Source: Methanothermococcus sp. Ax23 (GTDB lineage: Archaea > AGJL01 > Methanococci > Methanococcales > Methanococcaceae). From it: a stretch of DNA of 64,000 nucleotides. The number at the start of each line of letters is the position of its first letter. Position 1 is the first letter of the stretch. The stretch lies in NCBI RefSeq assembly GCF_049075655.1, contig NZ_CP157522.1:928001-992000 (forward strand), written 5' to 3'. Shown one piece after another: positions 18,113 through 59,879 of this stretch. Both the position numbers and the translations under genes were made by a program. The notes under the pieces were generated by a model. The model searched no databases. It was not told the DNA's origin and worked only from the letters and a program-made list of their open reading frames with translations.

Positions 18113-19360
18113 TTATAAGGAATAAATCCTTATTGGGTTGCCAAGCCCACTATCCCTATCCTTTGAAGGATTCGGGACTACCTTTTTCAAAATATTCAAA
18201 GCACCATTTACATCAGCATTTATTATTAAACCACATTTAGAACAAATATATAGACCTCTATATTTTCTATTACTTTTCTTAACGATTCCACAATTACTAC
18301 ATGTTTGAGAAGTATAAGATTCATTAACCTGTTCTACTGTTATTCCATATCCTACTGCTTTATATTGTATCATCTGAATTAACTTTCCAAAAGGTATTCT
18401 GTGTAGTTTTTGATTATTTATTTTCCCTATGTTCATTGAGGTTATTCCTTTGTTCATTTCACCAATTACAATTTTTGAAACTTTATCATTCTTTGCTAAT
18501 TCTACAATCATTCTACTAACTTTATGAATATAATCTTTGACATAATTTTTTTCCTTTACTGTTAATTTTGATAATCTTTTGGAGGTTTTTAGTTTTTGTT
18601 TGGATAAAATAGACATTAGTTTTGCTTTTGTTTTGTTGAACCATCTTAATTTAGATACTAATGTTTTGCCATTGAAAATATAAGGTTGTTTTTCATTCTG
18701 TATTACTGTTGTTGCTAAATTCTTAATTCCTAAGTCAATAGCCATTACTTTTTCATTGTTAAATGTTAGTGGGGTTATTTTTTTCTTATAAATCAAATGA
18801 AGTATAAAATATCTTTTACCGTAAATATCATGCGGGACTATCTCAACTTCTTTAATTTTCATGGTATTGAGCGATAAGATTTTCGGTAATCTTATCCATA
18901 GATACTTGGACTCAATACCATGCTTTTCTTTTAGATAGTTTTTGGTTTGTTTTGAAAGAGATAATCTCAATTTATTGTCTATTATTTTGAATCCGTTCTT
19001 TTTCCATTTAACTGGAAAATGACCATCTTTTGGTTGGAATTTAGGTTTTTTAGTATGTTCGGAGCGAAGCGGAGAGCAACGAAAACCTTCGGTTTTCGTA
19101 TAATGTTTGAAAAAATTATCCCACGCTATTGAAAGTTTTTGACATACTGCTTGTGCTGACTGTGAGTGTAAGTTTTTAAACCAGAAATTGTTCTTCATTT
19201 GAACATCTATTTTGTTAGGGTTAATATTTCGTTGCATTACTTCGTAGTTAGATACATTCCATAGTTTTGATGCTGAATAGGTTAAATGGTTTAGGATTGT
19301 TAATTGTTCATTGTTTAATTGTCTTGTTATGTTCAGCGTGTGGACTCTTGAAACTTCCAA
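18113..19360 (-). CDS. tnpB: RNA-guided endonuclease TnpB (IS200/IS605)
   Basis: AIDLG (RuvC-I), NESYTSQTC, CSNC/CSKC Zn finger, NADVNGALNI (RuvC-III); TTG at 19360 after GGTG preferred, ORF open to 19384. Confidence 0.95.
   Translation of the reverse strand: MEVSRVHTLNITRQLNNEQLTILNHLTYSASKLWNVSNYEVMQRNINPNKIDVQMKNNFWFKNLHSQSAQAVCQKLSIAWDNFFKHYTKTEGFRCSPLRSEHTKKPKFQPKDGHFPVKWKKNGFKIIDNKLRLSLSKQTKNYLKEKHGIESKYLWIRLPKILSLNTMKIKEVEIVPHDIYGKRYFILHLIYKKKITPLTFNNEKVMAIDLGIKNLATTVIQNEKQPYIFNGKTLVSKLRWFNKTKAKLMSILSKQKLKTSKRLSKLTVKEKNYVKDYIHKVSRMIVELAKNDKVSKIVIGEMNKGITSMNIGKINNQKLHRIPFGKLIQMIQYKAVGYGITVEQVNESYTSQTCSNCGIVKKSNRKYRGLYICSKCGLIINADVNGALNILKKVVPNPSKDRDSGLGNPIRIYSL
19055..19102 (-). repeat. 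48-bp in-frame palindromic insertion within tnpB
   Basis: ACGAAAACC-GAA-GGTTTTCGT hairpin plus CGCTTCGCTC motif; AACAT direct repeat at both junctions; encodes YTKTEGFRCSPLRSEH. Confidence 0.75.
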
Positions 19361-19361
19361 G

Positions 19362-19446
19362 CTAAACACCTTTTTGATTATCATATTGTCTAATTATATC
19401 AAGTGATACTGTCCCTACAGTTTTTAATAGGTGTTTTTATCTTCAT
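19362..19446 (-). pseudogene. tnpA: Internally deleted Y1 transposase (tnpA) remnant
   Basis: GGTGA RBS and MKIKTPIK start joined out of frame to TVGTVSLDIIRQYDNQKGV*, resembling the TnpA C-terminal helix with the catalytic Tyr. Confidence 0.7.
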
Positions 19447-20034: not shown

Positions 20035-20229
20035 GTATTTTGTATTAATACTGACCTACTCCAACGAGTGAACTCGTTGGGTTCTTTTAGTAGGGTTTAA
20101 CCCTACACGGGTGGCCAAGCCCACTACCCCTACCCATTAATGGGTTCAGGGCTACGCTATGCACTTCCAACCACTACCAGCGGTAGAGTTTTCACTAACC
20201 CTACCCATAGATACTTGGACTGGTAGCGT
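20035..20229 (-). ncRNA. Putative stand-alone TnpB omegaRNA (scaffold plus 16-nt guide)
   Basis: GC-rich nested hairpins homologous to the tnpB 3' end (18082-18180); TATA-like AATATAAATA at 20251-20260; T7 run right after the guide. Confidence 0.6.
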
Positions 20230-20335
20230 TACTTACTACTAATCTTCATATATTTATATTTTACTACTTACTAGCCGATATAATGTCCGCCTCTCATCCA
20301 ACGACTGAAGTCGTTGACTTTCCCGGCGGTTTATC
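20051..20335 (-). mobile_element. Protein-less IS200/IS605 mini-element (PATE-like), 285 bp
   Basis: Minus strand: TTAC target, AAAG guide, LE hairpin CAACGAC-TTCA-GTCGTTG; RE GAAC guide, hairpin CCAACGAG-TTCA-CTCGTTGG, ending TCAG. Confidence 0.85.
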
Positions 20336-57425: not shown

Positions 57426-58367
57426 TTATTTCTTTGTTATGATTTTTGCCCCATTTTCAGTAATTAAAACTGTATGTTCCGACTGGCTCACCATACCGCG
57501 GTTTTTCTCAATTAATGATGGGTATCCATAGAGACAACCTGAGCTCATCAAATTTCTCAATCCTGCCTTGTATTTTGGGTCCTCATTTGCGAGCCATCTC
57601 TCTGCAAATGGTAGATATGGGTATTTTTTTTCAATAATTTTTAATATTTTCCTTGCAGAAGGTAATCTGACCGGTCTTGATGTTATATATTTAAAGATAT
57701 ATTTTTCACTTCCATCTACAACCTGTCCAAATCCATCTGTTGCAAAAGGCTCTATTGCCACAATATCCCCAACATCAATGTAATCTTTTGATTTCTCCTT
57801 TATATTGGGAATGCTTATTCCAGAATGTAAAACATACTGTTCCATAACATGTCCAGATAGGTTTGATATTGGTTTGTATCCATAACTTTCAATTACTTCT
57901 TGGATAATTGCCCCCATATCTCCAATATTCATTGGTGGCACAATTTCCTTAATTACGGTATGGAGTGCATCCTCTGACGCCTTTTTTAAATCATTGTAGG
58001 AGCTCGACAAATCAATAGTTATGGCACCGTCTGCTATGTATCCATCAACATGAACTCCAACATCTAACTTTACAACATCATTTTCAGAGAATGCCTTTTC
58101 ATCCCCATAAAAGGGCGTATAATGTGCTGCAATATCATTTATTGATATGTTGCAAGGAAATGCAACTTCTCCTCCGAGCTCTCGGGTTCTGTTTTCAATA
58201 TATTCTGCTACATCGTAAAGTTTAGTATCAGGTTTTATAAGCTTTACGGCTTCTTCCATTATTTCAGCATGGATTTTTCCAGCTTTTGTTAGTTTTTTAA
58301 CCATGTTGGTTTCTTCATCCTTTCCTTCTTCCATCTTATTTTTTTTAGTTATGTCTTCAATTGTCAT
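57426..58367 (-). CDS. map: Methionine aminopeptidase type II
   Basis: AFPCNIS, AAHYTP, DVGVHVDGYIAD, AIEPF, EHT. Confidence 0.96.
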   Translation of the reverse strand: MTIEDITKKNKMEEGKDEETNMVKKLTKAGKIHAEIMEEAVKLIKPDTKLYDVAEYIENRTRELGGEVAFPCNISINDIAAHYTPFYGDEKAFSENDVVKLDVGVHVDGYIADGAITIDLSSSYNDLKKASEDALHTVIKEIVPPMNIGDMGAIIQEVIESYGYKPISNLSGHVMEQYVLHSGISIPNIKEKSKDYIDVGDIVAIEPFATDGFGQVVDGSEKYIFKYITSRPVRLPSARKILKIIEKKYPYLPFAERWLANEDPKYKAGLRNLMSSGCLYGYPSLIEKNRGMVSQSEHTVLITENGAKIITKK

Positions 58368-58426
58368 TATATCCCATTTTTAATTTATTTTTTATTTTTT
58401 TATTTATTTTATTTTTATTTATTTAT

Positions 58427-58782
58427 CCAATGTCGGCGGGAAGTTTGATAAATTCCTTCGGAATTTATAAATGTCTTCGCTATCGCTCAGACATCCCCTT
58501 CCGTAAGGTGGAGATGAGATCAGATGAAATGCTTCGCATTTCATTACTTTCCTTCGCTATCGCTCGGAAATCCGACGAAAAATATAAATATTATGGCATA
58601 ATAAAATAGATATATAAATGGGCGAAAACCAAGCCCATTCTACACTATTTCCATACACCTGCGGAAGGCGGGGGTGAGCCTGTGGAGAAGTGAGCCCCTA
58701 CCTAGGTAGTTAATAACTACTGATGATGGCAAGCTCGTTCAGTGAAGCAGGAAGCCCCTTCCGTAAGGAAGGGGTACTTCAC
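58427..58782 (+). mobile_element. Protein-less IS200/IS605 mini-element with two nested palindromic inserts
   Basis: LE TGTCGG..CCCCTTCCGTAAGGTGGAG..CCGACG after TTTAT; RE GAAG-CCCCTTCC-GTAA-GGAAGGGG-TACTTCAC. Confidence 0.85.
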
Positions 58783-58798
58783 GTTCTTTTAATTACAA
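58620..58798 (+). ncRNA. Putative stand-alone TnpB omegaRNA, second family
   Basis: GC-rich tnpB-3'-like scaffold (CCTGTGGAG...GAAGCAGGAAGCCCC) preceded by AATATAAATA at 58581-58590. Confidence 0.55.
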
Positions 58799-59879
58799 TC
58801 GTAAGGATATCTCCATCTTCCAATACATGATTAAGCCCTACCCTTTGACCAGGATGTTTTGCAGATTTTCCCCATACTTGGGCATATCTAAAATTCTTTA
58901 CAAAATCTCTGTGAAGTTTATTACATACATCTTCAACAGTAGAACCTCTTAAAATAATAAGTGGTTCGTCAAGGTCTGGTTTTTTACCCTGTGGTTTTAA
59001 ATAAACCTTCATAAATCCAAGGGTATTAAAAATTTGTTCTTTTAATTCTTCAATATTAATATTTTTATGCCCTGAAACAAGAATGTGCGGTCTATCCTTC
59101 AAAACTTCTTCAATTCTCTTAATATGCTCTTCATCAGCTAAATCTATCTTATTCACAATAACAAGGGATGGGATATACACTCTGTTTGCACTAATCACAT
59201 CTATAAATTGGTCTGTTGTGATATCATCCCTTATTACGATATCTGCGTTGTGTATCCTATGCTCATGTAAAATTGCTACAATCGTTTCTTCATCTATGTT
59301 TGTTAAAGGAACTGTGGTGTTTATATTAATTCCACCCCTATCCTTTTTTACAATCTTAACATCTGGTGGTCTTTGGTCTAATCTAATGCCAACATTGTAG
59401 AGCTCCCTTTCAATCACTGGGATGTGCTCAGGTGAGAACACATCAACAACAAGCATCACTAAATCCACATTTCTAATGGCGGCTAATACCTCACTACCTC
59501 TACCTTTTCCAAATGATGCACCAGTAATAATCCCTGGAGCATCTAATACCTGTATTTTTGCCCCCCTATACTCTAAAATTCCTGGAATTATTGTTAATGT
59601 TGTGAAAGCATATGCTCCAACTTCTGAGTTGGCATTTGTAAGTTTATTTAAAAGTGTAGATTTACCTACTGATGGAAATCCTACAAAAGCAACTGTGGCA
59701 TCCCCTGTTTTTTTAACCGCGTAGGAGTATCCTGTCCCTGTGCTTTTTGGTTTATTTTGCATATCTCTTAATTTTGCAAGTTTCGCCTTCAATATCCCGA
59801 TATGTTTTTGAGTAGCCTTATTATACTGTGTATTTTTTATTTCGTCTTCTAATCTTTTAATTTCTTCTTGAATCCCCAT
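58779..59879 (-). CDS. DRG/Rbg family (OBG superfamily) GTPase with TGS domain
   Basis: GFPSVGKST, YAFTTL, DAPG, NKID, WGKSAKHPGQRVG. Confidence 0.95.
   Translation of the reverse strand: MGIQEEIKRLEDEIKNTQYNKATQKHIGILKAKLAKLRDMQNKPKSTGTGYSYAVKKTGDATVAFVGFPSVGKSTLLNKLTNANSEVGAYAFTTLTIIPGILEYRGAKIQVLDAPGIITGASFGKGRGSEVLAAIRNVDLVMLVVDVFSPEHIPVIERELYNVGIRLDQRPPDVKIVKKDRGGININTTVPLTNIDEETIVAILHEHRIHNADIVIRDDITTDQFIDVISANRVYIPSLVIVNKIDLADEEHIKRIEEVLKDRPHILVSGHKNINIEELKEQIFNTLGFMKVYLKPQGKKPDLDEPLIILRGSTVEDVCNKLHRDFVKNFRYAQVWGKSAKHPGQRVGLNHVLEDGDILTIVIKRT

Follow-up and report, generated by a model that had tools for sequence, protein, structure and literature searches.

Between two co-directional genes on the minus strand of the window, which is the 64,000-nt stretch of DNA that was analysed, lies a short gene-less insertion of the IS200/IS605 type. 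It abuts, and in fact completes, the 3' end of a gene for a DRG-type GTPase. The features of the locus are the following.

57426..58367, minus strand: Peptidase_M24 gene (methionine-aminopeptidase-like), downstream of the GTPase gene and co-directional with it, with its start 59 nt from the left end of the element
58422..58426, plus strand: TTTAT target (transposon-adjacent motif), directly 5' of the element and the left flank in most copies of its family
58427..58782, plus strand: non-autonomous IS200/IS605-type element (PATE/MITE, family B) of 356 bp, with both ends common to other copies
58494..58512, plus strand: left-end subterminal hairpin, CCCCTTCC GTAA GG.., from a repeat search and a DNA fold
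58600..58782, plus strand: structured 3' half of the element (RNA fold z = -3.8)
58755..58774, plus strand: right-end subterminal hairpin, CCCCTTCC-GTAA-GGAAGGGG, with an 8-bp stem that is 100% complementary
58778..58782, plus strand: TTCAC right terminus (transposon-encoded motif), which reads G-TGA-A on the minus strand
58779..59879, minus strand: DRG-type GTPase gene of 366 aa, which ends ...IVIKRT and whose stop is element DNA
58783..58802, plus strand: right-end flank, which adjoins the element and is antisense to the last DRG codons

The predicted GTPase matches PF01926 (MMR_HSR1, 2.1e-24), PF16897 (MMR_HSR1_Xtn, 9.9e-38) and PF02824 (TGS, 1.8e-22). This combination of a GTPase domain, the MMR_HSR1 C-terminal extension and a C-terminal TGS domain assigns the predicted protein to the DRG subfamily of Obg-like GTPases. 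The last codons of the gene are AAA AGA ACG TGA. Its stop is the TCA at 58779-58781, and the C at 58782 provides the third base of the threonine codon. Because TTCAC is kept in every copy of the element, both the stop and this third base are element DNA. On the other side of the element, the minus-strand reading of 58423-58426 is A-TAA, which corresponds to the ancestral last-codon base and the ancestral DRG stop. In-silico removal of 58427-58782 yields a DRG gene that ends ACA TAA. A preliminary description of this DNA had claimed that the last four bases of the gene are the TCAC end of the element, and the coordinates confirm it.

The boundaries of the element are established by its copies and by its anatomy. 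[quoted passage not shown] The right-end hairpin has an additional outer stem, in which 58742-58747 pairs with 58777-58782. Its DNA fold has a z of -4.3, none of 200 shuffles folds equally well, and stem substitutions between copies preserve pairing. The element is without terminal inverted repeats and without a target-site duplication, and its left and right flanks are unrelated. The G+C content of the block 58427-58782 is above that of its surroundings between the DRG and Peptidase_M24 genes. The only ORFs that overlap the element, of 82 and 41 aa, run across hairpin and AT-rich DNA and represent no credible gene. Its AT-rich centre (58578-58622) contains TATA-box-like words on either strand and, on the minus strand, a T5 run, and this segment could serve as a terminator of DRG transcripts or as a promoter towards either side. 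The structured 3' half has a short identity to the right ends of tnpB-bearing copies (blastn), and the sole Rfam match on the element, RAGATH-18, scores 22.1 bits, below the cut-off of 44.9. In the known TnpB/omega RNA architecture, the right end of the transposon marks the limit of the omega RNA (PMC10055086). By analogy, 58600..58782 is a putative omega RNA (guide-RNA) scaffold that may descend from the 3' end of a tnpB element. The flank at 58783..58802 would then be the guide segment if the right end were transcribed as omega RNA.

Copies of the element were collected from the 1.67-Mb genome by blastn of the block, followed by alignment of the ends and by a pattern search that added two more copies. 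Family B, as defined in this way, comprises 11 paired copies of 255-1490 bp that include full-length and internally deleted forms. The right end is TTCAC in 11/11 copies, followed by a variable base and then by unrelated DNA. The left end is C[C/T]AATGTCGGCG, which follows TTTAT in most copies, TTTAA in two and ATAT in one. Copies of 1.4-1.5 kb carry TnpB. An example is the 1490-bp copy at genome 1424256-1425745, which encodes a 421-aa protein with matches to PF01385 (OrfB_IS605, 2.1e-20) and PF07282 (Cas12f1-like TNB, 4.3e-11). The TnpB zinc-ribbon/TNB domain (PF07282) has 21 matches in the genome, and the Y1 transposase (TnpA, PF01797) has none in this genome. Within the taxonomic family, 3 of 21 genomes have PF01797 matches, and the relative G015 carries an intact Y1 TnpA. 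Without a resident Y1 transposase gene the element counts as non-autonomous, and we infer its mobilising enzyme. Since TnpB copies share its ends and Y1 is absent, the window element can be placed as a derivative, devoid of genes, of an IS200/IS605-type element that carries TnpB. It has the subterminal hairpins, the TTTAT-type target, the right-end motif, the TnpB-bearing relatives and the lack of coding capacity of the IS200/IS605 (PATE) class. All of its features fit the family except for the missing resident Y1 transposase. The end pair that the preliminary description had recognised as IS200/IS605-type is thus upheld by the hairpins, the target, the TTCAC end and the TnpB-bearing relatives.

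Two further families were mapped in the same genome. Family A has 37 paired copies, a TTAC target and a right end that finishes ..GGTCAG. Family C has nine right ends (one at genome 372234-373553), a TTCAC target and an end that finishes ..CTGAC. This end holds no stop on the opposite strand, so family C is unable to swap a stop. Since the TTCAC that family C targets is also the right terminus of family B, family C could in principle insert directly after family-B right ends. Altogether, at least 57 IS200/IS605-type end pairs or right ends were mapped genome-wide in the three families. The window itself holds two more features of this kind.

18113-19393, minus strand: TnpB ORF of 427 codons, stop to stop
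20051-20335, minus strand: family-A MITE

In a congener, G010, at locus L056 (G010:C1:316500-320300, minus strand), a left end follows TTTTAA and has a CCCCTTCCGTAAGG hairpin with the same motif as the window element. It is followed by two Y1 transposase fragments (a frameshifted tnpA) and then by a 424-aa ORF that is probably tnpB.

The gene end before the insertion can be read in relatives. DRG orthologues are present in 31/31 genomes, and the gene ends were read in the orthologues from 30 relatives, of which the five closest (L002-L006, 90-95% identity) were examined. All five end KRT with an ACA codon. The stop that follows is TAA in L002 (95% identity) and L004 (91%), and TGA in L003 (94%), L005 (90%) and L006 (90%). 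ACG is the last DRG codon in the window genome only. Therefore, the C-terminus of DRG is ancestral, and the A-to-G change and the TGA came with the element. The predicted empty site is matched by the orthologues, and the ancestral gene end is thus established. The preliminary description had held that removal of 58427-58782 restores ACA TAA and the same K-R-T-stop; the in-silico removal and the orthologues agree on this point, and a longer C-terminus, one of the findings that it had named as contrary, appears in none of these five. Its more exact expectation of ACA TAA ATA in orthologues was borne out in part, since L002 reads ACA TAA A and the following bases differ. Contigs from three public runs, which belong to three studies, span the junction of the right end with DRG, and two of them span the left junction. 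An assembly artefact can thus be dismissed as the source of the occupied state. No contig in four public runs joins across 58427-58782 to give an unoccupied DRG end, although contigs drop rare variants.

Two observations on the relatives belong beside this comparison. The ACA TGA ends of L003, L005 and L006, which have no element, were considered as excision footprints. This idea was rejected because the codon is still ACA rather than ACG. Excision is seamless in the IS200/IS605 family, which is a second reason against it. In L002 (G003), from a sister species, a different PATE of ~414 bp, of the same broad family, lies at about 1068-1482 in the spacer between the DRG and aminopeptidase genes. 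Its orientation is likewise antisense and its target is TTTTAA; it lies 15 nt past the DRG stop. It is an independent insertion into the same spacer.

The stop swap is not confined to the DRG gene. The TTAT target is A-TAA on the minus strand and the TCAC end is G-TGA, and therefore a convergent gene that ends xxA-TAA becomes one that ends xxG-TGA. The TCA of the element is the TGA of a convergent gene in 4 of the 11 family-B copies, at the genes for DRG, a nitrogenase-component-1-like oxidoreductase, RNase HII and NadA. The equivalent arrangement is found in 3 of the 37 family-A copies. The changes to the last codon are as follows.

Family B: ACA to ACG, Thr, silent
Family B: AGA to AGG, Arg, silent
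Family B: AAA to AAG, Lys, silent
Family B: ATA to ATG, Ile to Met
Family A: TGG to TGC, Trp to Cys
Family A: AAG to AAC, Lys to Asn
Family A: CTG to CTC, Leu, silent

With the same junction present at other loci, the swap is no one-off, and its recurrence is established. The reading of TTAT as the reverse complement of A-TAA and of the TCAC end as G-TGA, first made at DRG, holds at the three other family-B loci. The accompanying claim that these elements insert silently at stop codons is true of three of the four family-B cases and fails for the change of ATA to ATG and for two of the three family-A cases, in which the last residue is altered. The TTAT/TCAC pairing is silent except at ATA, and silence is not general across families. 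In three congeners, 2 of 16 family-B-like right ends fall on a convergent stop, and the rest all lie more than 5 nt from one (the 16 right ends derive from 16 loci, one of them without a pattern match, plus L002).

How often such landings are expected was calculated from simple ORF-based gene calls, made without annotation, that cover 88% of the sequence with 1725 genes, of which 722 end in A-TAA. For the null model, 48 mapped copies were removed in silico and the ORFs were called again, which gave 1692 genes. Each TTAT, TTTAT, TTAC and TTTAC site was then classed by its insertion position, and all TTAT and TTTAT sites were assumed to be equally good targets. The class in which an insertion falls on a convergent stop makes up 6.4% of the non-disruptive TTAT sites and 5.9% of the non-disruptive TTTAT sites. 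The observed counts compare with this null as follows.

Family B on a convergent stop: 4/9 non-disruptive copies, 6.4% expected, P=0.0016
Family B on a convergent stop, all copies as trials: 4/11, 6.4% expected, P=0.0038
Family B on a convergent stop, discovery case left out: 3/8, 6.4% expected, P=0.011
Family B within 5 nt of a convergent stop: 7/9, 10.8% expected, P=5e-6
Family A on a convergent stop: 3/30, 7.5% expected, P=0.39
Congener family-B-like right ends on a convergent stop: 2/16, P=0.27

An excess over the uniform-target null is thus established for family B only, in this genome. There is no excess in the congeners, so the family-B signal rests on 9-11 copies from one genome. The enrichment at stops that was anticipated from the DRG locus is therefore borne out by family B but not by family A or the congeners.

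The distances of the copies from neighbouring stops and starts add to this picture. The six family-B copies between co-directional genes are all antisense and lie from 4 nt inside to 5 nt beyond the stop of the upstream gene, 21-120 nt from the downstream start. Three family-B copies adjoin stops at 0, 1 and 5 nt without a swap, next to an unnamed 164-aa ORF, PyrI and EhbP. When the TTAT-type targets of a spacer are ranked by their proximity to the stop, the sites used at five family-B loci have the ranks 1/9, 1/3, 1/4, 2/9 and 1/5 (exact P=6e-4). At the locus with rank 2, an on-stop site is free and unused, and the neighbouring site 5 nt off was taken. Family-A copies lie 9-105 nt away from stops, compared with the tight placement of family B in the same genome. 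Of the 30 non-disruptive family-A copies, 11 are in convergent spacers, which account for 13% of spacer length, and the seven that are antisense in co-directional spacers are all closer to the 3' end than to the 5' end of their neighbours. The right end faces a convergent gene in 18/30 copies of family A, 9/9 of family B and 7/9 of family C. Pooled, this is 34/48 against about 48% expected (P about 0.001); for the nine non-disruptive family-B copies alone, the expectation is 47% (P about 0.001). Neither GC skew nor gene-strand counts, both taken per 100 kb, showed a clear origin/terminus pattern on which a replication-strand account of this orientation bias could be built.

Some copies do interrupt ORFs. 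Taking the element out in silico restores a longer ORF at nine copies, which therefore appear to interrupt genes. Seven of the 37 family-A copies are of this kind (genome 415274, 524127, 993048, 1135161, 1247043, 1375406 and 1520822). So are two of the 11 family-B copies (genome 1071337 and 913228), and the 66-aa ORF at 913228 may be spurious.

Several explanations of these findings have to be weighed. That the DRG junction is a pure coincidence of one locus, with no pattern behind it, is very improbable. Any TTAT insertion that overlaps A-TAA gives the swap automatically, and about 6% of the candidate non-disruptive sites are of this kind, so a single case would need no further explanation. 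However, the same junction is present at three more family-B, three family-A and two congener loci, strong Pfam matches occur in three of the other junction genes, and the family-B excess keeps its P=0.011 when the discovery case is left out. The preliminary description suggested that silent insertion at stops could be a general safe-harbour strategy. In an evolved strategy of this kind, the TTAT-type target and the TCAN-type end would be kept for neutral landings on antisense TAA codons and the element would seek such sites. In favour of this proposal are the family-B count on stops (4/9 against 6.4%), the reading of the ends as TGA on the other strand in two of the three families examined, and the size of the available class, as 722/1725 ORF-genes end A-TAA. 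Yet family A has no excess (3/30 against 7.5%) and alters the last residue in two of its three swaps, the CTGAC end of family C is unable to supply a stop, and only 2/16 congener right ends are on a stop. Moreover, one locus used a site 5 nt off despite an available on-stop target, three family-B copies adjoin stops without a swap, and 2/11 family-B and 7/37 family-A copies interrupt ORFs. The proposal is thus unsupported beyond one family in one genome, with family A, family C and the congeners against it, and we regard an evolved strategy as unlikely. It is just as doubtful that convergent stops form a genome-wide neutral landing class, with the motif pairing kept by selection on the element and the family-B excess as a signature of adaptation. 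If the safe-harbour idea were true, it would mean that both the target and the end motifs of a transposon have been selected for harmless landing, and it would offer a new view of the persistence of Cas12 ancestors in small genomes.

A different kind of selection might act on the guide. The right-end flank would become the guide of the TnpB omega RNA, so it might need to be unique coding DNA. Copies that face such DNA would be tolerated, and copies in low-complexity AT-rich spacers would send TnpB to many sites and would be lost. The 21 TnpB matches in the genome agree with this idea, as do the right ends of the non-disruptive family-B copies, 9/9 of which face a convergent gene (47% expected, P about 0.001). 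TAM-adjacent near-matches to the flanks were also counted across the genome (12-nt seed, no more than 2 mismatches). Within the DRG spacer, the site that was used has 56 of them, compared with 330-535 at six of the eight unused sites and with 30 and 59 at the two unused sites nearest the DRG stop. These counts are suggestive but confounded with position. The match criterion is also lax, the used sites still have tens of near-matches, and family-A right ends lie in spacer DNA without obvious penalty. Selection for a unique guide is an explanation to which we give little credence, somewhat less than to an evolved landing strategy.

The explanation that we consider probable is an insertion rule combined with purifying selection in short spacers, rather than an evolved strategy. 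A PATE from a TnpB-carrying IS1341-type lineage would have inserted 3' of a TTTAT that overlaps the A-TAA of DRG on the other strand. The insertion presumably proceeded by the single-strand chemistry of a Y1 transposase supplied in trans. Through the conserved TTCAC end, the minus-strand ACA TAA has become ACG TGA, with the protein unchanged. The stop swap is the automatic result of the target motif and the end motif of the family. Copies would cluster at stops mainly since selection purges insertions elsewhere in short spacers or within genes. Where a spacer is 43-121 nt long, the upstream region of the downstream gene takes up most of it, and the stop-proximal edge would be the least harmful place. 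A landing on the stop itself would be harmless because the end motif rebuilds the stop. The family-B copies that hug stops without a swap, and the use of the stop-proximal target within spacers, point to selection that spares the upstream region of the downstream gene more than to a stop-codon strategy. Survivorship therefore appears to be the simplest account of stop hugging. Selection alone gives no obvious, full reason why family B is tighter than family A.

These results bear on genome annotation: a gene end beside such an element can be a chimera, and what reads as a G-TGA or C-TGA stop may belong to the element. By the genome-wide count, the stop swap is a real by-product of the way in which IS200/IS605 elements insert, and one that recurs. 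The apparent preference for stops varies with the family, and selection in a compact genome is the better explanation for it.

Among known systems, IS608 (ISHp608) of Helicobacter pylori inserts 3' of TTAC, and its right end finishes TCAA. Its Y1 HUH transposase binds subterminal hairpins, and transposition proceeds via single-stranded DNA. Family A resembles IS608 in that it has a TTAC target and a TCAG end, where IS608 has TTAC and TCAA. Unlike IS608, the window element carries neither tnpA nor tnpB, and its genome has no Y1 transposase gene.

A system with the same target motif is ISGst2 of Geobacillus stearothermophilus (TnpB2), which has the transposon-adjacent motif TTTAT and an omega RNA bounded by the right end (PMC10055086). 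TnpB-only and PATE-like copies of the ISGst2 type are presumed to be mobilised in trans (PMC10055086). ISGst2 shares TTTAT with the window element and is likened to it by motif and architecture, not by sequence. Its host is bacterial, whereas the host of the window element is archaeal.

PATEs derived from IS605/IS1341-type transposons have been described in Haloquadratum walsbyi (PMC3119063) and noted in Geobacillus stearothermophilus (PMC10055086). In the available portions of these accounts, the likeness to the window element is close. Like the PATEs, it is gene-less and has near-terminal palindromes related to those of TnpB-carrying elements of the same genome. It is likewise without terminal inverted repeats and target duplication, and has a short conserved terminal oligonucleotide. 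A targeting sequence of 4-5 nt lies at the 5' side in both cases, and full-length and internally deleted copies coexist. The term 'stop codon' has no occurrence in the available text of PMC10055086, and the available passages of PMC3119063 (12/31) do not tie stop codons to PATE insertion. More broadly, the accessible portions of the full-text literature, including PMC3119063, PMC7290912 and PMC10055086 and leaving supplements aside, hold no statement on elements that land on or replace stop codons. The window element differs from the described PATEs in its host, a methanogen with a genome of 32% G+C, and, as far as the accessible descriptions go, in that it sits on the stop codon of a gene and supplies the stop.
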